Origin: Phreatobacter sp.
Lineage (GTDB): Bacteria; Pseudomonadota; Alphaproteobacteria; Rhizobiales; Phreatobacteraceae
DNA: 64,000 nucleotides
Assembly (NCBI RefSeq): GCF_030691135.1
Contig: NZ_JAUYFA010000058.1
Span: forward strand, 1,620-65,619
Direction: 5' to 3'
The notes under the pieces were generated by a model. The model was not told the DNA's origin. It worked only from the letters and a program-made list of their open reading frames with translations, and did not search any database. A program made the position numbers and the translations under genes. This document shows, one piece after another, positions 736 through 57,547 of this stretch. How positions within the stretch are numbered: the stretch's first letter is position 1; each line of letters starts with the position of its first letter.

Positions 736-1746
736 ATGCCGCGCATGACAGTCGATGCCATCGAAGCTCTCGCCGCTGCGGCGCTGCGCCGGCATGGGGC
801 GAACGAGGTGCAGGCCAAGGCGCTGGCCGCCGGCCTCGCCGGTGCCGAGCGCGACGGCATCCGCTCCCACGGGCTGATGTACCTGCCGGTCTATTGCGAG
901 CATCTGACCTGCGGCAAGGTGATCGGCGGCGCCGAGCCGGTCCTCACCCGGCCGGCCCCGGGCAGCCTGGTCGTCGATGCCGGTGCGGGCTTCGCCCACG
1001 CCGCCATCGACCTCGGCCTGCCCGACCTGATCGCCACCGCGCGAAGCCAGGGCATCGCCAGCCTCGCCATCCGCAATTCCTACAATTGCGGCGTCCTCGC
1101 CTATCATACCGAGCGGATCGCCGAGGCAGGACTCGTCGGCCTCGGCTTCACCAATGCGCCGGCCTCCATCGCCCCTTCCGGCGGTCGCAAGGCGGTGCTC
1201 GGCACCAATCCCTGGTCCCTCGCGGTCCCGGACGGCGCCGGCGGCGCCCGTTTCGTCATCGACCAGAGCGCCAGCGTCATCGCCAAGAGCGAGGTGATCA
1301 AGCGCTCGAAATCCGGTGAGGCCATTCCCGAGGGCTGGGCGCTGGACGCCGACGGCCGGCCGACCACCGACCCGGTCGAGGGCCTCAAGGGCACGATGGT
1401 GCCGTCGGGCGGCTACAAGGGCGTCGGCGCGGCGCTGCTGGTGGAAGTCTTCGCCGCCTGTCTCGCGGGCGCGACGCCCGGCATCCAGGCGAGCCCCTTT
1501 TCCGGCCCCGCAGGCGGGCCGCCGAGGACCGGTCAGTTCTTCATCGCGCTGGCGCCGGACATCTCCTCCGGCGGCGCCTTCGCCGACCGGCTCAGCGTCG
1601 TGGTCGAAGCGCTGGGCGCCGAAACCGGCGGACGGCTTCCCGGCGGACGGCGGGCTGCAGCGCGCGCCCGCATCGCCGCCGAGGGCGTCGAGGTCGACGA
1701 GGCGACCGGGGCCATGCTGCTCCGGCTGGCGGGGCAGGGCGCATGA
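736..1746 (+). CDS. Ldh_2 family oxidoreductase (malate/L-lactate/sulfolactate/ureidoglycolate dehydrogenase type 2 family)
   Basis: 336 aa. SD GAGGAA lies 5 nt before ATG 736. The N-terminal region (AGAERDGIRSHGLMYLPVY) and GYKG motif are typical of Ldh_2 enzymes. The stop overlaps the next start (ATGA at 1743-1746). Confidence 0.8.
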   Translation: MPRMTVDAIEALAAAALRRHGANEVQAKALAAGLAGAERDGIRSHGLMYLPVYCEHLTCGKVIGGAEPVLTRPAPGSLVVDAGAGFAHAAIDLGLPDLIATARSQGIASLAIRNSYNCGVLAYHTERIAEAGLVGLGFTNAPASIAPSGGRKAVLGTNPWSLAVPDGAGGARFVIDQSASVIAKSEVIKRSKSGEAIPEGWALDADGRPTTDPVEGLKGTMVPSGGYKGVGAALLVEVFAACLAGATPGIQASPFSGPAGGPPRTGQFFIALAPDISSGGAFADRLSVVVEALGAETGGRLPGGRRAAARARIAAEGVEVDEATGAMLLRLAGQGA

Positions 1747-3395
1747 CGATGGCCCTCCGCCCGCCTGACGAGGTGATGCGGCTCGACCGCCTTGGCGCCG
1801 CCCATCCGACGCGGCTGAGTTTCCTGCGCGCCTTGCTGCGGCGGGTGGAAGGTGAGGGCTGGTCCTATCGCCGCACCGCCTGGGAGATCGATCCGGAAGG
1901 CTTCGGCCATGCCGTGCTGACCGTCGTCGCGCCGGCGAGCACCTATTCGCTGGTCGCCTTCTCGACGCCGCTCGCCGACGAGATGCGCACCGACCGCGTC
2001 ATCGCCGAGGCCTGGGACACGAGCTATGTCCTCTATGACGGCGTCCCCGACGCCGCCGAGATCGCCCGGCTGCGCGCCAATGCCCCGCGCCAGGAGGCCG
2101 GCCGCTTCACCGAGCGCGATCTGGTGCTGGCCCGCGCCAACAAGAGTGTCCGTCTGTTCGCCCATGTGGCCGAAAGCCTCGCGAACGGCCATCAGCCGGA
2201 TGCGGATCTGCTGGCGAGCGTCGGCTATCTGATGCGCACCACCGCCGTCTACGGCAACGGCAAGTTCGGCATCGCCGACCGCGACCGCATCGCCGGCCGC
2301 ACCGAACTCGCCGGTCCGTTCCGCGCCGAGATGCTCGCTGTCTGGCTGATCCGCGCCTTCACCCTCGATCTCGTCGAACATGTCGCTGCGGCGCAGGGCG
2401 GGGCGCGTGCGACGACCCTCGACCCGTCGCTGCGGCGCAGCCTCGGCGTCGGCAATTCCACCGGCCTCGGCATGGCGCCCTTCCTGGTCCGTCATCCCCT
2501 CCTGGTCCACCGCTGGTTCCATGCCCGCGAGACGGCGCTGGCGCGGGTGCGCGCGCTGGCCGCCGCCGGTCCCGCCGAACAGGCGGCGTTCCGGACGGCA
2601 CTGGCGGCGATGCGCCAGACCGTGAGCCGCTGGCACACCGAGGATCCGGTGCAGGCGCCGCGGGTCGCGGTGCTGGCAGATGATCTCGCCGCCCTGGCCG
2701 CCGCCGCCGGACCGCTCCTGGCCGGGCCCGATCCCTGGGACGCGCTCTATCGTCACGCCTGTGAGGCTCTGTCCGTCGAAGCACAGGAGGCGGTGGTGGC
2801 GCTCGTTCTCGAGCCGCACGGCGCCCTGGTCGACGATCTGGCCGAGACCATGCAGGCCGACGAGGACACCGTCTTCCGCATCGACGGGACGATGACCGTC
2901 GGCGCATTGATCGCCCAGCTCGCCGAACATTACGGCTGGGTGCGCCGGTTCGACTTTTCCGACCCCGCCAGCGAGGCGCGCTTCTGGTACGTCTCGGAAG
3001 AAAAGCTGGAGCCGCGGCTCGGCGAGCGCGGGGCAGAGGACGGCGCTGAACGCGAACAGCCGCTGGCGGTGGCCCGTGACGTGAGCCGGCTCGGGGCGGC
3101 GCTACTCGCCGCGCGACAGGACGAGCCGGTCGCCGCCTTCCTGATGCGGCAGCCCGCCTTCCGCCATGTCGTGCGGCGGGCGCAGGTCGCCATCGCCCAT
3201 CCCTATGCCGAGGTGCGCGACAATCTCGTCGCGGCCACCATGCGGCCCGTCGATTTGCTGCGGGCCAAGCTCGCCTTTTTTGGCGCCAGCCGCTTCGATC
3301 CGCGCTCCGACCGCTGGCTGCGGATTTCGCTCTTCGCCGATGCGCCCTTCCCGGAGGAGATCTGCCGGCAGGACCGGGAGCGCATCGCCTCATGA
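1743..3395 (+). CDS. hypothetical protein, 550 aa, no family recognised
   Basis: Long ORF with an ATGA overlap to the upstream gene and a protein-like, non-repetitive translation. The competing antisense and alternate-frame ORFs are Arg/Pro/Ala-rich artefact-like strings. I recognise no catalytic motif. Confidence 0.65.
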   Translation: MTMALRPPDEVMRLDRLGAAHPTRLSFLRALLRRVEGEGWSYRRTAWEIDPEGFGHAVLTVVAPASTYSLVAFSTPLADEMRTDRVIAEAWDTSYVLYDGVPDAAEIARLRANAPRQEAGRFTERDLVLARANKSVRLFAHVAESLANGHQPDADLLASVGYLMRTTAVYGNGKFGIADRDRIAGRTELAGPFRAEMLAVWLIRAFTLDLVEHVAAAQGGARATTLDPSLRRSLGVGNSTGLGMAPFLVRHPLLVHRWFHARETALARVRALAAAGPAEQAAFRTALAAMRQTVSRWHTEDPVQAPRVAVLADDLAALAAAAGPLLAGPDPWDALYRHACEALSVEAQEAVVALVLEPHGALVDDLAETMQADEDTVFRIDGTMTVGALIAQLAEHYGWVRRFDFSDPASEARFWYVSEEKLEPRLGERGAEDGAEREQPLAVARDVSRLGAALLAARQDEPVAAFLMRQPAFRHVVRRAQVAIAHPYAEVRDNLVAATMRPVDLLRAKLAFFGASRFDPRSDRWLRISLFADAPFPEEICRQDRERIAS

Positions 3396-3886: not shown

Positions 3887-5005
3887 ATGGCAGGCAAGGC
3901 TTCGGCCCAGGTGATCGCGATGCGCGGCGCCGGCTACTATTCCTCCAACACCGTGGGTGCCAAGGCCGTCATCGACAAGGCCGGCGACCTCGTCGTCGAA
4001 GCCCTCGGGAGCATGGCGATCAAGCCGGCCAAGACCGCCTTCTCGGTCTGCGACTACGGCGCCGCCGATGGTGGCACCTCCCTCGACATGATGCGGCGCC
4101 TCGTCGAGACGGTCCGGCAGCGGGCCCCCGACCGCGCCATCCAGGTCACCTATACCGACCTGCCGCACAACGACTTCTCGGCGCTGTTCCGGCTCACCCA
4201 GGGCCTCCTCGGCGACCAGGCCAAGACGCCGCTCGCCGAGACGCCGAACCTCTACATCGCCGGCTCGGGGACGAGCTTCTACAAGCAGATCGTGCCGGAC
4301 GGCACGCTGCATCTCGGCTTTTCCGCTACCGCCATGCACTGGCTGAGCAAGCGGCCCGGGCTCATCGCCGACCATGTCCAGGCGGTCGGCGCCACGGCGG
4401 CGGAACAGGCGCTGTTTCGCCGCCAGGCCATGGCCGACTGGGACACGATCCTGCTCGCCCGCGCCAGGGAACTGGCGCCCGGCGGCAGGCTGGTCCTTGC
4501 CAATTTCTGCGCCGACGAGCAGGGCCGCTATCTCGGCCATACCGGCGGTGTGAACATGTTCGACGCCTTCGCCCGCCACTGGCGCGACCTGTGGAAGAAG
4601 GGGCGCATCACCGAGGCGGAATATCGGGGCGCGACGTTCCAGCAGTTCTACAAGACGCCGGACGAATTCGCCGCGCCCTTCCGCGACAAGGGCTCGGCCG
4701 TTTCCCGCGCCGGCCTCAGGCTCGATCACATCTCGACGACGGTGACGGCCTGCCCCTATGCGGCTGATTTCGCCAGGCACGGCGACGCCGCCGCTTTCGC
4801 CAGCGCCTATGTGCCGACCCTGCGCTCCTGGTCAGAGACCGTCTTCGCCGGCGCTCTCGACGCCAAGCGGTCGGCGCATGAGCGGGGCTCCATCGTCGAC
4901 GCCTTCTACGGCGCCTACGAGGCCGACGTCGCCCAGAACCCCGCCGGCCACGCCATGGACTACGTCCATTGCTTCATGGTCATCGGCAAGAAGGGCGGCC
5001 GCTGA
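3887..5005 (+). CDS. SAM-dependent methyltransferase, SABATH / Methyltransf_7-like
   Basis: Motifs MRGAGYYSSNTVGAK, CDYGAADGGTSL, VTYTDLPHNDFSALF and GSGTSFYKQIVPDGTLHLGFSATAMHWLS line up with the plant-type carboxyl methyltransferase signatures (M.GG...SY..NS, NDLP.NDFN, GSFY.RLFP...H...SS.SLHWLS). ATG 3887 has GAGGGA 8 nt upstream. The ORF-track start at 3821 is TTG. Confidence 0.75.
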   Translation: MAGKASAQVIAMRGAGYYSSNTVGAKAVIDKAGDLVVEALGSMAIKPAKTAFSVCDYGAADGGTSLDMMRRLVETVRQRAPDRAIQVTYTDLPHNDFSALFRLTQGLLGDQAKTPLAETPNLYIAGSGTSFYKQIVPDGTLHLGFSATAMHWLSKRPGLIADHVQAVGATAAEQALFRRQAMADWDTILLARARELAPGGRLVLANFCADEQGRYLGHTGGVNMFDAFARHWRDLWKKGRITEAEYRGATFQQFYKTPDEFAAPFRDKGSAVSRAGLRLDHISTTVTACPYAADFARHGDAAAFASAYVPTLRSWSETVFAGALDAKRSAHERGSIVDAFYGAYEADVAQNPAGHAMDYVHCFMVIGKKGGR

Positions 5006-5087
5006 CGCATCACACGACCAGTCTTTGGGGGAACGTCGAGGAAGGCACGCAAAAGGGCCACCGACGCCGATTACACGGGAGACCAAC

Positions 5088-6176
5088 ATGAAGAGACGTC
5101 ATTTTCTGGCCGGAACGGCGGGCGCTGCCGCTGCAACCCTCGCTGCGCCGGCTCTGGCCCAGGCTCCCACCGTGCGCTGGCGCATGGTGACGAGCTGGCC
5201 GAAGAGCCTCGACACCATCCACGGCTCGGCCATGGCCATGGCCGAGCGCATCAGCCAGATCACCGAGGGCAGGTTCCAGATCCAGGTCTTCGCCGCCGGC
5301 GAGATCGTGCCGGCCCTCGGCGTCTTCGATGCGACGTCGAATTCCACGGTCGAGTGTTCCCACACGCTCTCCAGCTACTTTTTCGGGCGCAACCCGGCCA
5401 TCGGCTTCGACGGCGGCATGCCCTTCGGCCTCAACACCCGCCAGCAGCAGGCCTGGATGGTGGCGGGCGGCGGCAAGGAGCTGATGCGCGATGTCTTCGC
5501 CAAGTTCGGCCTCGTCGCGGTCCCCTGCGGCAATGTCGGTGTCCAGATGGGCGGCTGGTTCCGCAAGGAGATCAACACGCTCGAGGATCTCAAGGGCCTG
5601 AAGTTCCGCATCGGCGGCATCGGCGGCACCGTCCTCTCCAAGCTCGGCGCCGTGCCCCAGCAGATCGCCGCCGGCGACATCTATTCCTCGCTCGAGCGCG
5701 GCACGATCGACGCCGCCGAGTGGATCGGCCCCTATGACGACGAGAAGCTCGGCTTCGCCAAGGTGGCGCGCTTCTACTACACGCCCGGTTTCTGGGAGGG
5801 CGCGGCGCAGATCACCTCCTTCGTCAATCAGGCGAAATGGGCCGAGCTGCCGCCCGCCTTCAAGGCCGCCTACGAGGCCGCCGCGAGCGAGCAATGCGTG
5901 CAGATGATGGCCAATTACGACGCCAAGAACCCGGACGCCCTGCGCCGGCTCGTGGCGGCCGGAGCCCAGCTGCGCGCCTTCCCGCGCCCGGTTCTCGACG
6001 CCTGCCTCAAGGCGACCGTCGAGACGCTCGACGATTTCGCCGCGAAGAGCCCGGAGTTCAAGACCGTCTACGACAGCTGGAAGAAGTTCACCGACGATTC
6101 GAACCTGTGGTTCCGCATCGCCGAGAACACCCTCGACCAGTTCCGCTTCGCAGCGCCCAGCTGGGTGAAGAGCTGA
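5088..6176 (+). CDS. TRAP transporter substrate-binding protein (DctP family) with Tat-type signal
   Basis: MKRRHFLAGTAGAAAATLAAPALAQA is a twin-arginine signal. The body (WRMVTSWPKSLD, GGWFRKEINTLEDLKGLKFRIGG) is typical of DctP-type TRAP binding proteins. SD GGGAGA precedes ATG 5088. Confidence 0.8.
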   Translation: MKRRHFLAGTAGAAAATLAAPALAQAPTVRWRMVTSWPKSLDTIHGSAMAMAERISQITEGRFQIQVFAAGEIVPALGVFDATSNSTVECSHTLSSYFFGRNPAIGFDGGMPFGLNTRQQQAWMVAGGGKELMRDVFAKFGLVAVPCGNVGVQMGGWFRKEINTLEDLKGLKFRIGGIGGTVLSKLGAVPQQIAAGDIYSSLERGTIDAAEWIGPYDDEKLGFAKVARFYYTPGFWEGAAQITSFVNQAKWAELPPAFKAAYEAAASEQCVQMMANYDAKNPDALRRLVAAGAQLRAFPRPVLDACLKATVETLDDFAAKSPEFKTVYDSWKKFTDDSNLWFRIAENTLDQFRFAAPSWVKS

Positions 6177-34742: not shown

Positions 34743-36218
34743 TCAGGCGAGCGAGCGCGATGCGATCCGGACCTTGGCGGTCGCCTCGTCGATGTCGCCA
34801 GATGACGTGGCGATCATGCTGATGCTGCTGGAGATGGCCTGGACGCCTTCCGCGGCCACGCGCATGTTCGACGACATCTCGGCTGTCACCGCGCTCTGTT
34901 CCTCGACCGCCGTGGCGATGGCCGTCGATATCTCGCTGATCCGCATGATCGTCGAGGAGATGTCGCCGATGGCGCTGACCGCCCCCTCGGTGGACGCCTG
35001 TACCGATGCGATCTGAGCACCGATCTCCTCGGTTGCCCGCGAGGTCTGGGTGGCGAGGCTCTTGACCTCCGAGGCGACGACCGCGAAGCCCTTTCCGGCC
35101 TCGCCGGCGCGTGCCGCTTCGATCGTGGCGTTGAGGGCAAGAAGGTTGGTCTGGGCGGCGATGCTGTTGATGAGCTGCACCACGTCGCCGATGCGCGCCG
35201 CAGCAGTAGACAAGCCCGATACGATCTCGCCGGTCCTCGCAGCCTGCTCGACGGCACCGCTGGAGATATCCCGAGCACTCGTGACCTGTCGGCTGATCTC
35301 GCCGACGGACGCGGAGAGCTCTTCGGCACCCGCGGCGACCGCCTGGACGTTGCCTGACGTCTGGATCGAGGCTGCGGCGACCTGGGTCGCCTCGTGCTTG
35401 GCGCGGGACACGGATTCACCGATGCCGACAAGATCACCGTCGATCTGCCGCTGCACCTCGGAGCGGCGTTCCTGCTCCTTGACAATGGCCGTGATGTCGG
35501 TGGCGAACTTGACCACCTTGAAGGGCTTTCCATTCATGTCGAAGATCGGATTATAGGTCGCCTGGATCCAGATCTCCCTGCCGCCCTTGCCGATTCGCTT
35601 GTACTGCGCCGCCTGGAACTCGCCGCGCGCCAGGGAGGCCCAGAAAGCTTTGTATTCGTTGGAATGCGCTTCTGCGGGCGCGACGAACAGCGAATGGTGC
35701 CGTCCGCGGATCTCGTCGAGGCCATAGCCGACGGCGCCGAGGAAATTCTCGTTCGCCGTGATGATCTTGCCGTCGAGCTCGAACTCGATGACCGCCTGCG
35801 CCTTGTGGATGGCGGCCAGCTGTCCCTGGATGTCGGCGTGGCGGAGCTTCTGCTCGGTGACGTCGGTCGCATATTTGGCGACCATGTAGACGCGACCGCG
35901 GGAATCCATCACCGGATTGTAGGACGCCTGAATCCAGACCTCCTTGCCGCCCTTGCCGATGCGCTTGTATTCGGCGACCTGGAACTTGCCGGCGCGCAGA
36001 TTGTCCCAGAACTGACGATAGTCCTGGCTGTCGCGTTCGTCGGGAGCAACGAAAATCGAGTGGTGCTGTCCGCGAATTTCCTCGAGCCTGTAGCCGACCG
36101 TCTTCAGGAAGTTCTCGTTGGCCGTGACGATCCGGCCGTTGGGTTCAAATTCGATCACCGCCTGGGAGCGGTCGATGGCCGCAAGCTTGGCGGCAGCGTC
36201 GTTACGAAACAGCATCAT
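34743..36218 (-). CDS. soluble methyl-accepting chemotaxis protein with two PAS domains
   Basis: Has a duplicated module SQAVIEFxxxGxIxTANENFL...[19 protein letters not shown] and no TM segment. The C-terminal signalling domain reads [36 protein letters not shown]. The start is ATG 36218 or 36257. Confidence 0.88.
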
Positions 36219-36374
36219 CACGTTTCCCGGTTGGATTTGCTTTCGTTCTGGCGCCATCCATCACTCGCCGCGATTGAACAAAATCTGAATCGATATATCG
36301 CAAAAACCCACATTATCTGACGTAACGACAACCAAGGCGCGCTCGTCGCGGACAATCAAATTCCTGTGGAGAAA

Positions 36375-36417
36375 TGTGTAATCATTGTGCAGTATCAAAC
36401 TGTGCAGACGCTGTGCG
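36375..36417. promoter_or_regulatory. four TGTGYR direct repeats (candidate CarH/LitR operator)
   Basis: TGTGTA 36375, TGTGCA 36386, TGTGCA 36401 and TGTGCG 36412, spaced 11/15/11 nt. They lie in the AT-richer divergent region between the PAS-MCP and MerR/B12 genes. Confidence 0.4.
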
Positions 36418-36494
36418 GCGAGCGAGACCGTCATGGTAGTCATGCAGAATCGCGTATCGGTTTTTGTCTATCCGTACGGCGACCGGGGCACCCC

Positions 36495-37382
36495 ATGAAC
36501 AGGGCTATCGACATCTCCCGACTGTCGCAGCTGACGGGCGTCAATGTCTCGACCCTGCGCAGTTGGGAAACGCGCCACGCGCTGATCACGCCGTCTCGTT
36601 CGGTCGGCGGTCATCGGCTCTATTCGGCGGAGGATGTCGAGCGGCTCATGCTCGTCAAGGGCCTGATCGACAGTGGGCATCGGCTGTCGGAACTGCGTGG
36701 CCTGACCACCGACGAACTGAAGCAGTTGCAGCCCGCGATCTCCAGCGCTGGTGCCCTCGACCGGGACATGGTCATCAAGCTCGAACGGGCGGTCGACGAC
36801 TGCGACGTCGAAGCCTTCGGCATGCTCCTGCGCTTCGTCTTCGCAGCGTCGCCACCGGCCTTGGCCATCGATGTCTACGGCCATGCGATCCGCTACATCG
36901 GCCAGCGCTGGCAGGAGGGCAGGCTGGGGGTCGGCGGCGAGCACCGGCTTTCGGCCAAGGCGCGCGACGTCGTCACTGCCGCCACCAGCGCATTGGCGCC
37001 CGCAGCGCACCGGCGGCCGATCGCCTTCGCGACGCTCGGCGACGAACGTCATGAACTCGGCCTTCTCGCCGGAGCCTATCTCGCCGCATCGCTCGGCCAT
37101 CGCATGATCTATTTCGGCGCGGGGATGCCGGCGAGAGAACTCGCGGCCGATGTGGCCGGGTCCCAGGCGGCGCTTCTCGTCGTCAGTGCGGTGCACAGCG
37201 TCCCCGGCGGTTCCCTCCAGCACGATCTTGTTTGGCTCGACCGCGGCCTGCCCGAGGAGATTCCCATCTGGATCGGCGCCCATGAGGCGACCCTGGCGCA
37301 TCTCGTGGTGCCCTCAAGGATGGTCGTCATGCGCGACTATGCCGAGTTCCGTCGCCGTCTCAGCATGGCCTTCGAGTCCTGA
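36495..37382 (+). CDS. MerR-family regulator with cobalamin-binding domain (CarH/LitR-type photoreceptor candidate)
   Basis: The N-terminal MerR HTH is LSQLTGVNVSTLRSWETRHALITPSRSVGGHRLY. W139-x9-E149-H150 (RWQEGRLGVGGEHRL) and E184-x-H186-x-x-G189 (DERHELG) match the Wx9EH and ExHxxG AdoCbl-binding motifs of Thermus CarH. Confidence 0.8.
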   Translation: MNRAIDISRLSQLTGVNVSTLRSWETRHALITPSRSVGGHRLYSAEDVERLMLVKGLIDSGHRLSELRGLTTDELKQLQPAISSAGALDRDMVIKLERAVDDCDVEAFGMLLRFVFAASPPALAIDVYGHAIRYIGQRWQEGRLGVGGEHRLSAKARDVVTAATSALAPAAHRRPIAFATLGDERHELGLLAGAYLAASLGHRMIYFGAGMPARELAADVAGSQAALLVVSAVHSVPGGSLQHDLVWLDRGLPEEIPIWIGAHEATLAHLVVPSRMVVMRDYAEFRRRLSMAFES

Positions 37383-38404: not shown

Positions 38405-39286
38405 TCAGGCCCCCAGCGGTTTGACGTCCACCGCTACCGCGATGTCATGGTCGCCGGCCGCGATGACCACGCCGCCGTTCGGTGCGACATCGACGAAATC
38501 GCGCCCGATGGCGAGCACGATATGGTCCTCGCCGACGATCAGGCCGTTGGTCGGGTCGAGCCCCCACCATCCCAGTTCAGGTCCGCACCAGAGCGACACC
38601 CAGGCATGCGTCGCATCGGCACCCTCGAGGCGCGGCCTGCCGGCGGGCGGGATGGTGCGCAGGAAGCCCGAGACATAGGCCGCGGGCAGGCCGAGCCCGC
38701 GCAGCCCCGAGATCATGATGTGGGTAAAGTCCTGGCAGACCCCGCGCCGCATGGCGAAGGCCTTGGCGGCCGGCGTCGAGGTGTCCGTCGTCCCCGGCGC
38801 ATATTTGAAATCGCCCTGGATCCGTTTGGCGAGGTCGAAGGCGGCTTCGAGAACCGGGCGGCCCGGCGGAAACGACGCGCTGGCATAGGCGCGGATCATC
38901 GGGTCGCGCGGCACATAGGTCGACGGGAACAGTGCATGGACCGGTGATGAAGGCGACATGTCGGCGCTGGCGAAGGCGGTCTCGCGCACCCGCTCCCAGG
39001 GCGGGTCCATGCCGGGCAGCGGCCGGCTCGTCCCCGCCACCGTGATGTCTGCCCGCATTTCGATCGACAGGGTCCGGTGCGGGCGATCGAAATCGAGGAA
39101 GATGCGCCGGTTGCCGAAGAAGTCCCTGTCGTCACGCCGCATGGCCGGGCTCGGCGTGATGGCGATGTCGCAGCGCGAGACCTGCTGGCCCGGGCGGTCG
39201 ACCGGCATGATGCGCAGCACGTGCTGGGCGAACACCACCGGCCGCGCATAGCTGTAATCGGTGACCTGGCGGACCTGGTAGCGCAT
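38405..39286 (-). CDS. transglutaminase-like cysteine peptidase family protein (Bact_transglu_N + core)
   Basis: The Cys-His-Asp triad is intact: RRGVCQDFTH, DATHAWVSLW, WWGLDPTNG. ATGA overlap with the upstream gene at 39286. Confidence 0.88.
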   Translation of the reverse strand: MRYQVRQVTDYSYARPVVFAQHVLRIMPVDRPGQQVSRCDIAITPSPAMRRDDRDFFGNRRIFLDFDRPHRTLSIEMRADITVAGTSRPLPGMDPPWERVRETAFASADMSPSSPVHALFPSTYVPRDPMIRAYASASFPPGRPVLEAAFDLAKRIQGDFKYAPGTTDTSTPAAKAFAMRRGVCQDFTHIMISGLRGLGLPAAYVSGFLRTIPPAGRPRLEGADATHAWVSLWCGPELGWWGLDPTNGLIVGEDHIVLAIGRDFVDVAPNGGVVIAAGDHDIAVAVDVKPLGA

Positions 39287-41787
39287 CAGAACAGATCGCT
39301 GGTTGCGGGACCGACGGGGTTCGCCCCGTCGCGATGCGTGAAGTAGCGCTCGGAAACCTCGTCGGAAATCGCCATCAGCCGCTGCTCGATGGCGAGGATC
39401 TGGCGGCTGTCGAGCGTATGGGCATCCGCCGTCTGCAGGTCGACCCGCGTCCGGGCGATCAGCTTCTCCGGCACGTTCAGCCGTCCGTCAGCGGCATGGT
39501 CGGGCAGGTGGGCGAGATGGTCGGCGATCCGCTCCACCTGGAAGGCGACGGAGCGCGGATTGTTGGGGTCGAGCACGATGAGGTCGAGGACGGGCGCGCG
39601 CGCGGCGATCATCACGTAGCGGCGGCGATAGGTGATCTGGCTGTCGGCCAGCGCCAGCAGCAGATCGAGCCCCGCCGTCCCTGAGCGCGCATCGCCGAAA
39701 TTGCGTCCGAACCGGCAGATGGCCAGTGCCCTCTCGATCCGCTTGCCGATCTTCAGGAAGCGCCAGCCGATGAGCTGGTTCATGTTCTCCTGGGTGAGGC
39801 CCGAGAAGACGGCGGCCAGCCGCAGCCCGGTCTCGACCCGGTCGAGGGCGCCCGTCTCGAGGCGCTTGTCACCTTCGGCGAGGTGGACCATGTCGTTGAT
39901 GGTCTTCCAGGCGTCGGGTGAGAACCGGTCGCGGATGACGGAGGCGGCATTGTGCGCCGATCGCGACAGCGACAGGAGCCCGCCCGGTGTGCGTCCATGC
40001 AGGACCGCCGCGGCGACGGCCTGCGGCTCGGTGAGCACCGTATCCTTCGGCAGGGCCTCCCATGTGATCAGCAGGTCGACGAGGCGCTTGAGCATGTCGG
40101 GCCCGGTCGTCTCGCCGCTGCCGACCTGGTCGCCAAGCGCCCGCAGCAGGCGCAGCGTCCCCTCCGCCCGCTCCATGTAGCGGGCGAGCCAGAACAGGTT
40201 GTCCGCGGCGCGGCTGGGGAGGGACGAGGTCGAACGCCGGAGCTCGATCTTGTCGGGCGTCGGCAGCAGCGTCGTCTCCGCCACCGGCCCCTCCGCCAGG
40301 ACGCAGACATCGGCCGAGCGGCCGTCGCGCTGCATCGTCACCGCGCGGGCGTCGACCCTGTCGCCGATGCGGCAGAAGCCACCGGGCATCACCTCCCAGC
40401 CGTCACCGACACGGGCCAGGAACAGCCGCAGGATGAACGGGCGGGGCTCCAGATAACCGTCGTTCCAGACCGGCATGGTGGAGAGCTTGACGACCTCCTG
40501 GGCGACGAAGTCGGACCCGCGCAGGCGGATTTCCTCTGCCAGCCGCAAGCGGTGCTCCGGCGACAGGCTGGAGGCCAGGACCGCGCCGTCGTCGAGGAGC
40601 CCGGGAATGGTCTGCGTGAAGGCCGGGGCGATCACGAAGGAATCGAGATCGGCGATGACGGCGCCGCGCTCCAGCGGCTGGCCACACCACCATGTCGCGA
40701 CATGCGGTATGGCGAGGTCGCGGCCGAGGCGCGCGCGGGCGATCGAGGGCAGGAAGGCGAGCAGCGAACGCGCCTCCAGCACCCCTGATCCCAGGGCATT
40801 GGCCAGCGTCACCTTGCCCGATCGGATGGCGTGGACGAGGCCGGCAACGCCGAGCTGCGAGCGCGGATTGAGTTCCAGTGGATCGGCGAAATCGGCGTCG
40901 AGCCGGCGCCATACCATTTCCAGCTTCTTCAGGCCGGAGACCGTGCGGACATAAAGCGTGTCGTCGCGCACCGTGAGATCGGCGCCCTCGGCCAGGAGGA
41001 AGCCGAGATAGCGCGCCAGGAAGGCATGTTCGAAATAGGTCTCGTTGAGCGGCCCTGGCGTCAGCACCGCGACGCGCGAATTCGTCGCCGCCGCATGCGA
41101 CGAGAACTCCGAGCGCAGCGACTGGAAGAAGCCCGCGAGCCGCTCGACCGGCAGGTTTCGGTAGATTTCCGGCAGCGAACGCGCCATGGCGAGCCGGTTC
41201 TGCAGCGCATAACCGGCGCCCGAAGGGGCCTGGGCGCGGTCGCCGAGCACCCACCATCGGCCGTCCGGGCCGCGGCCGACATCGACGGCGTAGTAGAGGA
41301 GGTGCGAACCGCCGCGCGGCGGTGTGCCGACCAGCGGTCGCAGGAAGTCCGGAGATCCGGCGATGGTCGCGCCGGGCACCAGCCCGTCGCGCACGAGATC
41401 GGCCGGGCCGAACAGATCCTTCAGGACGAATTCCAGAAGCTCCGCCCTCTCACGCAGGCCTTTCGAGAGGGCTTTCCACTCGTCGGGAGCGATGACCAGT
41501 GGCAGATGGGCCAGCGGCCAGGCCCTCTCGCCGTTCTTCGGATCGTCGTAGACGCGGTAGAAGACGCCGGAATCACGCATGTAGCGATCGGCGCCGGCGA
41601 ACCGCTTCTCGAGCTCCCGCGGGCCGAGATCGGCGAGGGTGGCGAGCACCGGCTTCCAGTGTTCGCGCGGCTCGCCCTTCGCGTCGAGGATCTCGTCATA
41701 GACGCCGGGCACCGGCTGATAACGCGCCAGCATCGCCAGGATGCGTTCGGCGCGGTGATCGGTCGTGCGTTGGCTCCGGAAGGTCAT
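39286..41787 (-). CDS. circularly permuted type-2 ATP-grasp protein fused to alpha-E domain
   Basis: 833 aa. The N-terminal two thirds match CP_ATPgrasp_2 as I remember it (DSGVFYRVYDDP, WWVLGDRAQAPSGAGYALQNR, ETYFEHAFLARYLG, LANALGSGVLEA). The C-terminal part carries the alpha-E signature AADNLFWLARYMERAEG. Confidence 0.85.
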   Translation of the reverse strand: MTFRSQRTTDHRAERILAMLARYQPVPGVYDEILDAKGEPREHWKPVLATLADLGPRELEKRFAGADRYMRDSGVFYRVYDDPKNGERAWPLAHLPLVIAPDEWKALSKGLRERAELLEFVLKDLFGPADLVRDGLVPGATIAGSPDFLRPLVGTPPRGGSHLLYYAVDVGRGPDGRWWVLGDRAQAPSGAGYALQNRLAMARSLPEIYRNLPVERLAGFFQSLRSEFSSHAAATNSRVAVLTPGPLNETYFEHAFLARYLGFLLAEGADLTVRDDTLYVRTVSGLKKLEMVWRRLDADFADPLELNPRSQLGVAGLVHAIRSGKVTLANALGSGVLEARSLLAFLPSIARARLGRDLAIPHVATWWCGQPLERGAVIADLDSFVIAPAFTQTIPGLLDDGAVLASSLSPEHRLRLAEEIRLRGSDFVAQEVVKLSTMPVWNDGYLEPRPFILRLFLARVGDGWEVMPGGFCRIGDRVDARAVTMQRDGRSADVCVLAEGPVAETTLLPTPDKIELRRSTSSLPSRAADNLFWLARYMERAEGTLRLLRALGDQVGSGETTGPDMLKRLVDLLITWEALPKDTVLTEPQAVAAAVLHGRTPGGLLSLSRSAHNAASVIRDRFSPDAWKTINDMVHLAEGDKRLETGALDRVETGLRLAAVFSGLTQENMNQLIGWRFLKIGKRIERALAICRFGRNFGDARSGTAGLDLLLALADSQITYRRRYVMIAARAPVLDLIVLDPNNPRSVAFQVERIADHLAHLPDHAADGRLNVPEKLIARTRVDLQTADAHTLDSRQILAIEQRLMAISDEVSERYFTHRDGANPVGPATSDLF

Positions 41788-41793
41788 GGTGTG

Positions 41794-44700
41794 TCAATGC
41801 ACCGGCGGACGACGCAGGTCGAGCGTCGCGGGAAACTCTCCCGACCGCTCGCCGCGCGGGGGATCGACGAGGCCTGGCGTATGGCCGTGATCCTGGAACC
41901 GGGCGCGGCGTCGTGCCTCGGCCTCATAGGCATTGACCGGGAACGTGTCGTAGCTGCGCCCGCCGGGATGGGCGACGTGGTAGACGCAGCCGCCCATCGA
42001 GCGGCGGCTCCAGACATCGACGATGTCGAAGGTCAGCGGCGCATGGACCGGAATGGTCGGCTGCAGGCCGGACGGCGGCTGCCAGGCCTTGAAGCGCACG
42101 CCGCCGACGAACTCGCCGCTGCGTCCGGTGGCGGTCAACGGAACCGGGCGGCCGTTGCAGGTCACCGTGTGGCGTTCGGGCTGTAACCCGACCAGCCGCA
42201 CCTGCAGGCGCTCCACGGAGGAATCGACGAAACGCACGGTGCCGCCGATCGCTCCCTCCTCGCCGAGCACATGCCAGGGCTCCAGCGCCTGCCGGATCTC
42301 CATGCGCACGCCGGCATGGTCGACCTGACCGGCGAGCGGGAAGCGGAACTCGAACTGCGCCTCGAACCATGCGGGGTCGAAGGCGTAGCCGGCGCGGCCG
42401 AGATCGCCGAGCACGCCGAGAAAATCCTCCCAGACGAAATGCGGCAGCATGAACCGGTCGTGCAGCGCCGTGCCCCACCGCGCCAGGCCTCCGTCCTGCG
42501 GTTCCTTCCAGAACCAGGCGACGAGGGCGCGGATAAGGAGCTGCTGGGCGAGGCTCATCCGCGGGTCTGGCGGCATTTCAAAGCCACGGAACTCGACGAG
42601 GCCGAGGCGACCCGACGGGCTGTCGGGCGAGAACAGCTTGTCGATGCACAGCTCGGTGCGGTGGGTATTGCCGGTGGAATCCACCAGCAGGTTGCGGAAC
42701 AGGCGGTCGACGAGCCAGGGCGCGGGCGCTGCGCCCTCGCCGGGCTTCGGCACCATCGCCATGGCGATCTCGAGTTCGTACAGCCCGTCGTGGCGGGCCT
42801 CGTCGACGCGCGGCGCCTGGCTCGTCGGGCCGATGAAGAGGCCGGAGAACAGGTAGGAGAGCGACGGATGGCGCTGCCAGTAGAGTACGAGGCTCTTCAG
42901 CAGGTCGGGCCGGCGCAGGAAGGGTGAATCGGCCGGCCGCGCCCCGCCGACGACCACGTGGTTGCCGCCACCGGTGCCGGTGTGACGGCCGTCGACCATG
43001 AATTTTTCGGTGCCGAGACGCGCCAGACGCGCCTCCTCGTAGAGTCCCTGCGTGATCGCGACACATTCGCGCCAGGAGGCGGCGGGGTGGACGTTCACCT
43101 CGATCACGCCGGGATCGGGCGTGACCTTGATGACGTTGAGGCGCGGGTCGGTCGGCGGCGGATAGCCCTCGACATGGACGGTCAGACCCAGTTCCTTGGC
43201 GGTTGCTTCGGTCGCGGCGAGCAGTTCGAGATAGTCCTCCAGCCGCTCGGTCGGCGGCATGAAGACGCAGAGCTTGCCGTCGCGCGGCTCGACCGCCAGC
43301 GCCGTGCGCACCGAATTGTCCTCGGTCAGCACCTGCTCGACCTGGTCGGTCCGCTCGGCCTCCCTTTCGCGCTCGACCGAAACGCGCTGGGTGATCCGCC
43401 CCTCGATGTCGTGGGGATCTGGGAGTTCGGCCGGCACAGTCCAGGGATCGGCGGCGACGACATAGGGATAGGCAGCCGGCGGCACATAGGGCAGGGAGCC
43501 GAGGGGGAGGCGGTAGCCGACCGGACTGTCGCCGGGCACGAGGAAGAGCTTCTCGCGCTTCAGCTTCCACTTCTCCGTCATCCAGTTGGACGTCGCCGGT
43601 GCGGCGTTCCATCGCTGGATCGGCAGAACGAAGCCCGACGGATGGGTCAGGCCACGGGCGAAGACGCGGGCGATCCGGGCACGGGCCTCGGGATCCTCGA
43701 GCTTGGAGTCCAGCGCATCGACATTGACCGGAAGCTCGGCCTCCTTGATCACCCAGTGGGCCGGGTCCTCATAGGCCGGGAGCGCCGCCTCCCCGTCGAG
43801 ACCGAGTTTCTCGGCGATCCCGGCAGCGAGAGCCCCGGCGCCGTCGATCGTCGCAGGCGTCGCCGCCGCCTCGCGGGCGATGAGGGTCTCGTCGCGCCAG
43901 ACCGGCTTGCCGTCGCGGCGCCAGTAGAGGGCGAAGGTCCATCGCGGCAGGCTTTCGCCGGGATACCACTTGCCCTGGCCGTAATGCAGGAAGCCGCCGG
44001 GCGCGAAGGTGTCGCGCAGCCGCCGGATAAGGACGTCGGCGCGCTCCCGCTTCGTCGGACCGACGGCTGCGGTGTTCCACTCCTCGCCCTCGTAATCGTC
44101 GATGGAGATGAAGGTCGGCTCGCCGCCCATGGTCAGACGGACATCTGCAGCCACGAGGTCGGCGTCGACGCGGTCGCCGAGGGCGTCGAGGCGCTGCCAG
44201 GCCTCGTCGGAGAAGGGCGCGGTGACGCGCGGGCGCTCGTCGATGCGGTCGACGCGCATGTCGAAGACGAAAGACACCTCCGCCGGTTCGACGGCCCCGG
44301 ATATCGGGGCTGCGGAACGGTAGTGCGGCGTCGCCGCCAGGGGGATATGTCCCTCGCCGCAGAGAAGGCCGGAGGTCGGATCGAGGCCGACCCAGCCGGC
44401 GCCGGGAATGTAGATCTCGGTCCAGGCGTGGAGGTCGGTGAAGTCCTTCTCCGTGCCGGCCGGCCCGTCGAGCGCCTTGAGGTCTGGCTTCAGCTGGATG
44501 AGGTAGCCCGAGACGAAGCGCGCGGCGAGGCCGAGGCGCCGCGCCAGCTGGACGAGGAGCCAGGCCGAATCGCGGCATGAGCCCGAAGCGTTCTCGAGCG
44601 TTTCGTCCGGCGTCTGGACGCCCGGTTCCATCCTGACGATATAGCGGATGTCCTGTTGCAGCTGCTGGTTGAGGGCGACCAGGAAATCGATGGTCTGCGT

Positions 44701-45114
44701 CGGCCTGCGCGGGATGCCGGCGAGATAGCGCTCGAAATGGGCTTCAGTCGGCTCGATGGCGAGGTACGGCGCCAGTTCCTCGGCGAGAGCCGGCGCATAG
44801 GTGAAGGGGAACGTGTCGGCGTAGCTTTCGATGAAGAAGTCGAAGGGATTGACCACCGCCATGTCGGCGACGAGGTCGACGGTCACCGAGAATTCGGTCG
44901 TCTTCTCGGGGAAGACGAAACGCGCCAGCCAGTTGCCGTGCGGGTCCTGCTGCCAGTTCACGAAATGCTGCTCGGGAACCACCTTGAGCGAGTAGCTGGG
45001 AATGGTGGTGCGGCTGTGCGGCGCGGGTCGCAGGCGGATCACTTGCGGGCCCAGCGTGACCGGACGGTCGTAGAGGTAGCGCGTGACGTGATGCAGCTTT
45101 GCGAGAATGGCCAT
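41794..45114 (-). CDS. large transglutaminase-family protein with DUF2126 C-terminal region
   Basis: 1106 aa. N-terminal Bact_transglu_N plus a core with an intact triad ([26 protein letters not shown]). The remainder ([37 protein letters not shown]) is typical of DUF2126. Confidence 0.85.
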
Positions 45115-55599: not shown

Positions 55600-55652
55600 G
55601 GGCAAAGCGAAATCTGCTTCGCGCGCCGGTGTCAATCGGCGCCGCGCAGACG

Positions 55653-56735
55653 TCAGGCGAGCCGCGGCAGCCGGTCGAGGAGATCGCGCGACGAGGCCAC
55701 CGCCATCGCCTTGAACAGCGATCCCATGCCGGCAGGGGCCGGATCGATCAGCCGCTCGACCCCGGCCCGCAGCGTCTCGAACGCGTCCGGGCGGCTTTGA
55801 GCGAGACGTTCCGCCCGCTCGCGGAGACCGAGGCCGAAGAGCAGGGCGCGCTGGTCGACGGCGGGCGAGGCCGCAAGGCCCGAGGCAACGGCGGCCGCCG
55901 CGAAAGCCTCGAAATCGACATGGGCGGTGATGTCCGCCTCTCCCGGCGCGGCCAGGGGATCGGTGAAGCGATGCGCCTGTACCGCCTGCAGCGTCTCGCC
56001 ATGGGCCGATGCGACATGGCCATAATCGATGAAGAGGCCGGCCAGAGGAGCGCGCCTGGCGGCGAGGCCGGCCGCGAGGTGATGGAAGGCCGGACAGATC
56101 TCGACGACCGCCCCTGGCTCTCCCTGGCGGAGCGCGGCGGGGATGAGCGCTTGCGGCACGGGATCGCGGGCGAGGCCGAAGGCGAGCGCTCCGTCGACGA
56201 GCCCGACGACACGCTCGCGCCAGCCGGCGGCAGTCATGACGAATTGCCGGATCGGCAGGGCGTCGAGAAACTCGTTGGCGACGAGAATGGCGGGCCCGGG
56301 CGGGACGGTCGAGAGGTCGCGATGCCAGGCGAGCGGTACACTCGCCGCGCTCAGCACCTCATTCTGCCGCGCCGCGAGCACGGGCGAGGTCTCGACCAGA
56401 TGCACCGAGAGGGCCGCCCGAAAGGCTGGCAGCGCCTCTGCCGCGCGCAGGAGATCGGCCATCAGCGTGCCGCGCCCCGGCCCGAACTCGACGAGGGCGA
56501 CGGCCGCCGGCCGGCCCAACGCCTCCCAGGCGCTGGCCGCCCAGACGCCGGTCAGCTCGCCGAAGACCTGGCAGATCTCCGGCGCGGTGATGAAGTCTCC
56601 GGCGGCGCCGAAGGGGTCACGCGTCATGTAGTAGCCGTGGCGCGGGTGACCCAGCGCCAGCGCCATGAAACGGTCGACGGGCAGGGGTCCTTCCGTCGCA
56701 ATGAGCGCCTTCAGCTCCGCCGCCAACGGCGTCAT
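55653..56735 (-). CDS. class I SAM-dependent methyltransferase (DUF185 / NDUFAF7-MidA-like)
   Basis: GDFITAPEICQVFGEL, LVEFGPGRGTLMAD and ANEFLDALP. ATG 56735 overlaps the lgt stop (ATGA). Confidence 0.85.
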   Translation of the reverse strand: MTPLAAELKALIATEGPLPVDRFMALALGHPRHGYYMTRDPFGAAGDFITAPEICQVFGELTGVWAASAWEALGRPAAVALVEFGPGRGTLMADLLRAAEALPAFRAALSVHLVETSPVLAARQNEVLSAASVPLAWHRDLSTVPPGPAILVANEFLDALPIRQFVMTAAGWRERVVGLVDGALAFGLARDPVPQALIPAALRQGEPGAVVEICPAFHHLAAGLAARRAPLAGLFIDYGHVASAHGETLQAVQAHRFTDPLAAPGEADITAHVDFEAFAAAAVASGLAASPAVDQRALLFGLGLRERAERLAQSRPDAFETLRAGVERLIDPAPAGMGSLFKAMAVASSRDLLDRLPRLA

Positions 56736-57547
56736 GCCGGCTGGCGCCGCGACCTGAGCACCAGCCACAGCCCGACGCCGACCAGCGGTACCGATAGGAG
56801 CTGGCCCATGGTCGCGCCGGCGAAGAGGAAGCCGAGTTGCGGATCGGGCTGGCGGAACAGCTCGCCGAAGGACCGCGCCAGCCCATAGCCGATGCCGAAA
56901 CAGCCGGCGAGGAGGCCCGGTCGCTTCAGCCCGCCGGCCCGGACGATCAGCAGCAGGACGACGAAGAGCAGCAACCCCTCGGTCAGCGCCTGGTAGATCT
57001 GGCTGGGGTGGCGCGGCTCCGGCCCCGCACCGGGGAAGATGAAGGCCCACGGCACATCGGTGACGCGGCCCCAGAGCTCCGGCTTGATGAAATTGGCGAG
57101 CCGGCCGAGGGCGATGCCGATCGGTGCGACGACGGCGGCGAGATCGACCAGCGGCAGGAGCGGCAGGGAATTGCGCCGCGCGAAGATGAGGAGGCCGACG
57201 ACCGCCCCGACGATGCCGCCGTGGAAGGCCATGCCTCCCTCCCAGACCGCCAGGATCGCGGCCGGGTTGGCGAGGTAATAGTCGAGATTGTAGACGAAGA
57301 CGAAGGCGAGGCGGCCGCCGAGAATGCCGGCGAGCGCCGCCCAGACGATGGCGTCGTCGATGACCGCCGGCGCGAAGGGCGCCCTGCCGCCGGGCCAGAG
57401 GCGGTCGGTCGCGACGAGCCTCTTGGCCAGCCACCAGCCGAACAGGAACCCGCCGATATAGGCCAGCGCATACCAGCGGATCGCCAGCGGGCCGACCGCG
57501 ATCAGGACCGGGTCGATGACGGGAAAGGGCAGGGCGAGGAGCGTCAT
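56732..57547 (-). CDS. lgt: prolipoprotein diacylglyceryl transferase
   Basis: IRWYALAYIGGFLFG, GGMAFHGG, ALGRLANFIKPELWGR and HPSQIYQAL motifs. Starts at ATG 57547. Confidence 0.92.
   Translation of the reverse strand: MTLLALPFPVIDPVLIAVGPLAIRWYALAYIGGFLFGWWLAKRLVATDRLWPGGRAPFAPAVIDDAIVWAALAGILGGRLAFVFVYNLDYYLANPAAILAVWEGGMAFHGGIVGAVVGLLIFARRNSLPLLPLVDLAAVVAPIGIALGRLANFIKPELWGRVTDVPWAFIFPGAGPEPRHPSQIYQALTEGLLLFVVLLLIVRAGGLKRPGLLAGCFGIGYGLARSFGELFRQPDPQLGFLFAGATMGQLLSVPLVGVGLWLVLRSRRQPA

Follow-up and report, generated by a model that had tools for sequence, protein, structure and literature searches.

A CarH/LitR-family regulator paired with a soluble PAS-PAS chemoreceptor gene in Phreatobacter suggests control of a taxis receptor by light and vitamin B12

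We analysed a 64,000-nucleotide stretch of DNA (hereafter the window) from Phreatobacter sp. (NCBI RefSeq assembly GCF_030691135.1, contig NZ_JAUYFA010000058.1), in which a gene for a 295-amino-acid (aa) protein of the CarH/LitR family, here called carH, is transcribed divergently from a gene for a soluble methyl-accepting chemotaxis protein (MCP) with two PAS domains. With a probability that we put at roughly 0.55, the protein is an adenosylcobalamin (AdoCbl)-type, class I CarH/LitR repressor that acts on shared repeats and controls both its own gene and the PAS-PAS chemoreceptor gene by light. In the dark, the AdoCbl-bound regulator would oligomerise, and the oligomer would bind four 11-bp repeats at 36374-36421, arranged as two tandem pairs 4 bp apart. 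This binding would repress the divergent control region, and with it carH itself and the chemoreceptor gene. Light would break the Co-C bond, the oligomer would disassemble and transcription would rise, such that an illuminated cell would alter its chemoreceptor complement, the receptor being probably of a redox or energy-taxis type. We infer several parts of this scheme, namely AdoCbl binding, photolysis, the sign and strength of repression, the promoter or promoters controlled and the ligand of the MCP. The comparison of loci points to a taxis receptor, rather than pigments, as the product whose level light and B12 would set. It also led us to a wider proposal, which we hold tentatively and at somewhat less than even odds: that a B12 photoreceptor has been rewired in Phreatobacter from photoprotection to behaviour, with light and B12 governing at least one chemoreceptor gene through a portable cassette of ~190 bp that combines the putative CarH operator, built of two tandem repeat pairs, with three other conserved blocks. 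The finding covers a single genus, and its basis is comparative.

The earlier note on this DNA had assigned the 295-aa protein to the CarH/LitR family. Our results support this assignment: the protein is homologous to Thermus thermophilus CarH (TtCarH) over its full length, has TtCarH as its top structural match and carries both signature motifs at the correct spacing. In a phmmer search against PDB sequences, Thermus CarH/LitR was the best match (5c8d, E 4e-19 over residues 7-241), and in the alignment W139, E149, H150 and H186 fell on TtCarH W131, E141, H142 and H177. We built an AlphaFold (AF2) model from a 60-sequence alignment (predicted local distance difference test [pLDDT] 91; predicted template modelling score [pTM] 0.81) and compared it with the PDB using Foldseek. 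The top 50 matches were all TtCarH/LitR structures (best 5c8d/5c8e, E 2e-15), and the modelled B12-binding domain matched that of TtCarH with a TMt of 0.75-0.80 and a root-mean-square deviation of 3.2-3.6 Å. The best NCBIfam model was TransRegCarH (NF052513), at 82 bits, far below the equivalog cut-off of 400 bits; the protein is therefore a distant family member and not an ortholog of the NF052513 seed proteins.

CarH homologs are defined by the co-occurrence of Wx9EH and D/ExHx2G-x41-SxV/T-x22-27-GG (PMC8156234; PMC9304148). The earlier note had read W139-x9-E149-H150 and E184-x-H186-x-x-G189 in the protein and had held that the two motifs jointly mark CarH. Translation of the open reading frame (ORF) located both motifs as claimed and at the correct spacing, and PMC8156234 gives the same definition. 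Indeed, the B12 motif continues at exact spacing as E184xH186xxG189-x41-S231xV233-x27-G261A262, reaching window position 37280, with the final GG being GA. In the clade of close relatives described below, S231, V233 and G261 do not vary, and conservation of A262 is 90% or higher. The Wx9EH and ExHxxG residues stay the same throughout a 20-sequence alignment whose members go down to 26% identity. The 60-sequence alignment shows no variation at E149 or H186 and at least 90% conservation at W139, H150, E184 and G189. The protein also has a MerR-type winged helix-turn-helix (wHTH) with the recognition helix L21-R-S-W-E-T-R-H28, in which R22, W24, E25 and R27 are invariant in the clade. It thus shares with class I CarH/LitR proteins a recognition helix resembling RxWERRY, the motif of characterised CarH (PMC9304148). 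SignatureFinder uses the light-responsive elements GxxW, EH, GxxH and GxxxP (PMC11796333), and we found G136xxW139, E149H150 and G208xxxP212; the GxxH element is taken up below.

TtCarH (PDB 5C8D, 5C8E; class I) is built in the same way, from a MerR wHTH, a bundle of four helices and a Rossmann domain, although the two proteins are only ~24% identical. The Wx9EH motif, which in TtCarH caps the 5'-deoxyadenosyl group, and the ExHxxG motif align residue for residue. The Phreatobacter protein thus looks mechanistically like a class I CarH/LitR regulator, one that would bind AdoCbl and undergo photolysis. Class II LitR proteins (Pseudomonas PplR/PmlR2) are likewise MerR-type and control non-carotenoid light regulons (phrB, folE and ufaM), showing that the family can be rewired; however, they retain only the four-helix bundle, with a C-terminal domain lacking the B12 motif, have no functional Rossmann B12 domain, are B12-independent and have a short LOV partner (PMC9758184). 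The class II description does not fit here, because the B12 motif is complete, including the axial His, and the Rossmann fold is present.

To place the pair of genes in context, we compared loci encoding related regulators. The clade around the window protein is narrow (51-93% identity, 17 clusters), and all its source-named organisms are Phreatobacter; beyond it, identity falls to 39% or less, at the level of ordinary LitR/CarH proteins. Genome and metagenome scans gave six clade loci. The divergent PAS-PAS-MCP/carH pair was present in 12 out of 12 clade loci (the window, L001-L006, L008, L011-L013 and L052), with the MCP better conserved than the regulator (79-95% vs 53-90% identity). At the outgroup CarH loci (L007, L009, L010 and L014-L016; 33-39% identity), tblastn found an MCP neighbour in 0 out of 6; gene content was listed for four of these six. 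One of them, L007, shows a classical light-regulon setting, with a CMAS (cyclopropane-fatty-acid synthase family) gene, a sigma-70-family sigma factor, a second MerR gene and a DUF1722/2-thiouridine desulfidase gene.

The position of the pair has changed within the genus. In P. aquaticus, the ancestral neighbourhood has remained intact, at 28-49 kb of the chromosome (transglutaminase/ATP-grasp operon, the small gene orfX, creatininase, amidohydrolase and an MCP gene with a HAMP domain [HAMP-MCP]) and contains neither the carH-MCP pair nor the repeat array. The pair, together with its intergenic region, lies at 2.73 Mb amid unrelated genes, ~2.7 Mb from the ancestral site. In addition, the pair sits on one side of orfX in the window lineage and L001-L003, and on the opposite side in L005, L006, L008, L011 and L052. 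Judged from these comparisons, the pair has survived two independent rearrangements, moving as a unit in P. aquaticus. Synteny within one genus is weak evidence alone, yet the pair outlasted both events. The earlier note had named crt or phr genes as the neighbours of orthologs that would speak against it; the MCP gene held that place at every clade locus, through both rearrangements.

Two loci have a further receptor gene. In L008 (4741-6216) and L052 (8404-9879), a tandem PAS-PAS-MCP paralog lies directly downstream of the first after a gap of ~160 bp, and the two genes are probably co-transcribed. A scan of the L008 paralog revealed no repeat array of its own. Locus L002 (CALRLZ020000009.1) is labelled 'MAG: Archangium gephyra', and its pair and orfX show ~89-94% protein identity to those of the window; the contig probably comes from Phreatobacter and was mis-binned or mislabelled.

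We next turn to the control region shared by the two genes. The earlier note had given its size as 276 bp, which fits the MCP ATG at 36218, whereas the interval that it quoted, 36258-36494, runs from the longest MCP ORF and measures 237 bp. Its description of the region as AT-richer agrees with a GC content of 0.52-0.56, compared with ~0.67 in the surroundings. Alignment of 11 orthologous intergenic regions revealed four conserved islands amid otherwise diverged sequence: blocks A, B and D and an array of four 11-bp direct repeats (DR1-DR4; Table 1). On the minus strand, which is the MCP-sense strand, CGTCTGCACAG, ATACTGCACAA and TGATTACACAT are exact instances of nnnnTnnACAn, the published CarH repeat unit (PMC9304148), and DR4, TCGCCGCACAG, is a pseudo-repeat. 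Over 44 units, the consensus has T at position 2 (42/44), G at position 3 (34/44) and A at position 7 (41/44); more distant orthologs have a TnnGCA core. The repeats are positionally fixed although regulator identity drops to 53%, and the only indel in the block among the 11 orthologs is one 1-nt gap, in L006. The array occurs only where a carH-clade gene is present, and is absent from the outgroup loci and from the pair-less site of P. aquaticus. Scored with a position matrix of the orthologs, the window array reached 40.7, compared with a maximum of 13.3 in 30 Markov-shuffled 64-kb windows, a result weakened by the fact that the matrix was built from the sites themselves, the window site included. 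The phylogenetic footprint is therefore the stronger argument. The matrix scan found no other copy of the array above the null in the 64-kb window.

Published CarH operators offer both likenesses and differences. The TtCarH operator likewise consists of 11-bp repeats with a TnnACA core, but has three strictly tandem repeats, whereas the Phreatobacter array has four with a spacing of 11-15-11 (PMC9304148). The operators of Bacillus megaterium CarH/LitR and of myxobacterial CarH (Cystobacter fuscus and Sorangium cellulosum) contain four repeats or mixtures of true and pseudo-repeats, as here, and sit between divergent promoters, but they control carotenoid genes (PMC9304148). A 4-bp insert between tandem pairs does not appear in the descriptions of these operators in the excerpts of that paper. 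The Cystobacter protein (CarHCfu) acts as dimers, each needing two tandem repeats (PMC9304148). By analogy, a tandem pair on either side of a 4-bp spacer would accommodate two dimers, one on each pair, or a tetramer using four DNA-binding domains. By sequence, the Phreatobacter system thus appears to differ from known CarH systems in its 11-15-11 operator geometry and in its chemoreceptor output, with two chemoreceptor genes in one relative.

The repeat core and the recognition helix may co-vary. Orthologs with His at residue 28 (RSWExRH) mostly have TGTGCA or TGTACA cores, and those with Tyr (RSWExRY) mostly TGCGCA, as judged by eye; this may reflect protein-operator co-variation.

The three other islands probably bind further factors, because none of them matched a sigma-28, sigma-54, extracytoplasmic function (ECF) sigma factor or CtrA-box consensus when these were compared by eye. 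Block A, measured here from 36275-36293, lies 98-102 bp from DR1 in 12 out of 12 cassettes, and its pattern has no other exact match in the window; possible roles for it are that of MCP promoter and that of activator site. The MCP promoter may lie upstream, near block D and the repeats, in which case blocks A and B would be part of a long leader; alternatively, it may coincide with block A, and the repeats would then act from around -100.

A second cassette, present in one relative, argues most strongly that the operator acts in MCP transcription as well as on carH. On the 362-kb metagenomic contig L006, the matrix scored highest at 5962-6009, outside the carH-MCP intergenic region. This second array lies upstream, by ~205 bp, of a gene for a HAMP-MCP (4111-5757, minus strand) that is inserted downstream of the PAS-PAS-MCP gene. 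Blocks A and B, the repeats and block D follow one another in the same order and spacing over 5862-6045, a cassette of ~190 bp, with 100 bp from block A to DR1 and the CATG of block D 20 bp past DR4. When set against the window cassette and the main one of L006, the second cassette shows 50-83% identity in the block columns (block A, 12/22-15/22; repeat cores, 16/28-18/28; block D, 6/12-10/12), compared with the random level of 29-30% in the remaining columns. We found no carH remnant beside the second cassette, and we read the sequence past block D as a probable hairpin that terminates the upstream gene. The cassette as a whole, repeats and block D included, thus appears to have been kept for this MCP gene in its own right, which hints at a small CarH-MCP regulon in the L006 strain.

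The chemoreceptor is as the earlier note had described it, divergent and soluble. Pfam found two PAS_3 domains (E 4e-30) and MCPsignal (E 1.5e-28), without HAMP, and there is no transmembrane segment (maximum Kyte-Doolittle 19-mer, 1.29). The signalling domain has the conserved hairpin tip, as in other cytoplasmic PAS-containing MCPs. Azospirillum AerC and Pseudomonas BdlA have the same architecture, being soluble proteins with a pair of PAS domains at the N-terminus and the MCP signalling domain at the C-terminus. Among PDB entries, the FAD-binding PAS of MmoS (3ewk) was the best match to the PAS region. The homolog search led into a very large multi-PAS MCP family without functional names, which makes a redox or energy-taxis role no more than a guess. 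We considered LOV-type sensing by the PAS domains and rejected it, as no NCRFLQ-type Cys motif was visible in the sequences.

The characterised CarH/LitR regulators described in PMC9304148, PMC9758184 and PMC8156234 control carotenoid synthesis, and the targets of class II relatives are photolyase and related photoprotection genes (PMC9758184). TtCarH itself neighbours carotenoid genes, whereas the neighbour here is a chemoreceptor gene. The earlier note regarded the wiring as not previously described. This view stood up in full-text literature searches, which returned unrelated Vibrio LitR papers and reviews and no paper linking CarH/LitR to a chemoreceptor, although their coverage of the literature was not exhaustive. 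To our knowledge, there is no report of a soluble PAS-PAS chemoreceptor under CarH control. If our proposal is right, B12 photoreceptors would be tied to motile behaviour, and a transcriptional route to light-dependent taxis would exist in a non-phototroph. One regulator, one operator and one receptor would offer a simple genetic system for light as a positional cue in non-phototrophic bacteria, and optogenetic tools based on CarH would have a natural alternative in operator geometry to draw on, 11-15-11.

Several observations weigh against control of the MCP gene and would suit a narrower explanation, the main rival to our proposal, in which the repeats are an autoregulatory operator of carH only, the MCP gene has its own promoter near block A, the light regulon (crt, phr or other genes) lies elsewhere in the genome and the adjacency is inherited synteny. 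From the end of DR4 to the carH ATG there are 73-75 bp, a distance that varies by no more than ±1 bp across 11 loci (85-87 bp to codon 5 in 11 out of 11), while the repeats start ~155 bp from the MCP ATG. Because the repeats are nearer to the carH ATG, simple promoter occlusion fits carH better than the MCP gene, and the fixed distance is consistent with a carH promoter overlapped by DR3 and DR4. Block A, the most conserved element, sits between the repeats and the MCP start, and Thermus LitR/CarH directly represses its own operon. Neither a scan nor inspection by eye revealed a sigma-70-like promoter on either strand of the control region. In addition, the second cassette comes from a single metagenomic contig, and the whole clade, like all the evidence, comes from one genus, so that shared ancestry inflates the synteny counts. 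We nevertheless consider autoregulation alone unlikely, while taking it seriously. At every locus with called genes, carH is monocistronic with convergent genes downstream, and self-regulation alone would therefore have no output. Moreover, the pair and the operator relocated jointly in P. aquaticus, and in L006 the full cassette is under apparent selection before a second MCP gene without an adjoining carH.

The regulator could also be a CarH-family protein that is no longer a direct AdoCbl photoreceptor, acting as a B12 reporter without a light role or being controlled by a partner sensor like class II LitR. Its Rossmann B12 domain is divergent, with Pfam B12-binding (PF02310; E 0.1) and B12-binding_2 (E 0.035) both below threshold. 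Phreatobacter lives in groundwater and purified water, which are largely dark, as its name and isolation sources indicate. The GxxH element reads G182-D-E-R-H186, with the Gly one residue early, although some clade members have GExH. In the phmmer alignment, His132 of TtCarH, the second His of the light-state bis-His adduct, is replaced by Gln140. Of the dark-oligomer interface positions, Arg176 and Gly192 are kept (Arg185 and Gly201), whereas Asp201, the salt-bridge partner of Arg176, is Gly210, and Gly160 is Pro169; Pro at the latter position is common in CarH homologs (PMC9304148). LitR classes II-V show that the sensing mechanism has changed repeatedly (PMC9758184), and PAS proteins, the MCP and the orfX product, adjoin carH in most loci. 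Against a loss of photoreception, the lower-ligand His, ExHxxG-x41-SxV-x27-G at exact spacing and Wx9EH are all invariant in the clade, unlike in class II, and the modelled B12-binding domain superposes on that of TtCarH. Neither PAS protein has a LOV-type Cys motif, as read from the sequences, and orfX stays behind where the pair moves in P. aquaticus. We therefore rate this explanation as quite improbable. Still less credible, and in our view very improbable, is that another transcription factor, such as a response regulator reading 11-bp-spaced repeats, binds the array and that its likeness to the CarH unit is a coincidence. The TGYGCA core is short and close to a palindrome, which gives the reverse strand a good score too; the 15-bp central spacing departs from the strictly tandem 11-bp operators of TtCarH and B. 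megaterium CarH (PMC9304148); and blocks A, B and D indicate additional factors at work. However, the array is confined to carH-clade loci and is missing at the ancestral site of P. aquaticus and at the outgroup loci. Its T, G and A positions match published CarH contacts, the helix residues R22, W24, E25 and R27 are conserved, and published CarH operators are plastic, mixing true and pseudo-repeats (PMC9304148).

The positions of the features are given in Table 1. For carH, we took ATG 36495 as the start of the 295-aa form, which is conserved among orthologs as M/L-N-R-x-I-D-I-S. We rejected a longer ORF (36366-37382, plus strand) beginning at GTG 36366, because the extension would cover the repeats and because the repeat-to-gene distance shifts by 1-2 nt among orthologs, so that the frame is not maintained. 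For the MCP gene, ATG 36218 is M14 of the longest ORF, and M15 (ATG 36215) opens the ortholog-conserved N-terminus MLFRN.

Table 1. Coordinates in the window of the two genes, the regulator motifs, the elements of the shared control region and orfX
Feature	Position	Strand	Details
carH/litR-like gene, 295 aa	36495..37382	+	ORF list; MerR winged-helix, four-helix bundle and Rossmann-type B12-binding domain
DNA-binding domain, residues 1-75	36495..36719	+	Pfam MerR_1, E 2e-15, residues 7-71
Wx9EH motif, W139...E149-H150	36909..36944	+	WQEGRLGVGGEH starting at residue 139; aligned to TtCarH W131/E141/H142
Lower axial His ligand motif, E184-x-H186-x-x-G189	37044..37061	+	ERHELG from residue 184
Soluble PAS-PAS MCP gene	34743..36218	-	Likely start ATG 36218 or 36215; longest ORF to 36257
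Putative CarH operator, four 11-bp direct repeats	36374..36421	-	Spacing 11-15-11; 11-ortholog alignment
DR1	36374-36384		Repeat unit
DR2	36385-36395		Repeat unit; followed by 4-bp spacer
DR3	36400-36410		Repeat unit
DR4	36411-36421		Repeat unit
Block A	36273..36294		TGAACAAAATCTGAATCGA; T[GAC]AA-N7-T[GA]AA; most conserved element; ~55-80 bp upstream of MCP start
Block B	36318..36333		TGACGTAACGACAACC; conserved in ortholog alignment
Block D	36430..36450		GTCATGGTAGTCATGCAGAAT; CATG 20 bp past DR4 in most loci, including L006 second cassette
orfX, ~273 aa	37462-38331	-	Weak PAS match; Phreatobacter only, 17 clusters

Homologs of orfX were found in L001-L003, L005, L006, L008, L011, L051 and L052, flanking the pair on varying sides by lineage. 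We considered orfX as a third member of the module or as a sensor partner and rejected it: it is restricted to Phreatobacter, switches side and was left at the ancestral site in P. aquaticus.

By Pfam, the window contains transporters, amidohydrolases, a transglutaminase/ATP-grasp cluster, PhoR/PhoU/PhoB-like genes and a second MCP gene, of the HAMP type. The earlier note had seen no crt or phr gene nearby, and Pfam scans of the long ORFs with high GC content at third codon positions (high-GC3 ORFs), covering the 64 kb except ~27.7-28.7 kb, likewise detected none of the crt, phr, cob, che and fla genes. No Rfam family matched in the window, which thus has no cobalamin riboswitch. Two long high-GC3 ORFs on the plus strand, 1743-3395 (550 aa) and 55629-56888 (419 aa), had no Pfam match at E 1e-5; both overlap opposite-strand ORFs, and either may be spurious. 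The transglutaminase/ATP-grasp cluster (38405-45114, minus strand) comprises three genes, encoding a Bact_transglu_N/Transglut_core protein (293 aa), a circularly permuted ATP-grasp protein with Alpha-E (833 aa) and a transglutaminase with DUF2126 (1106 aa). It is syntenic in L005, L006, L008 and L052, which are loci with called genes, and in P. aquaticus.

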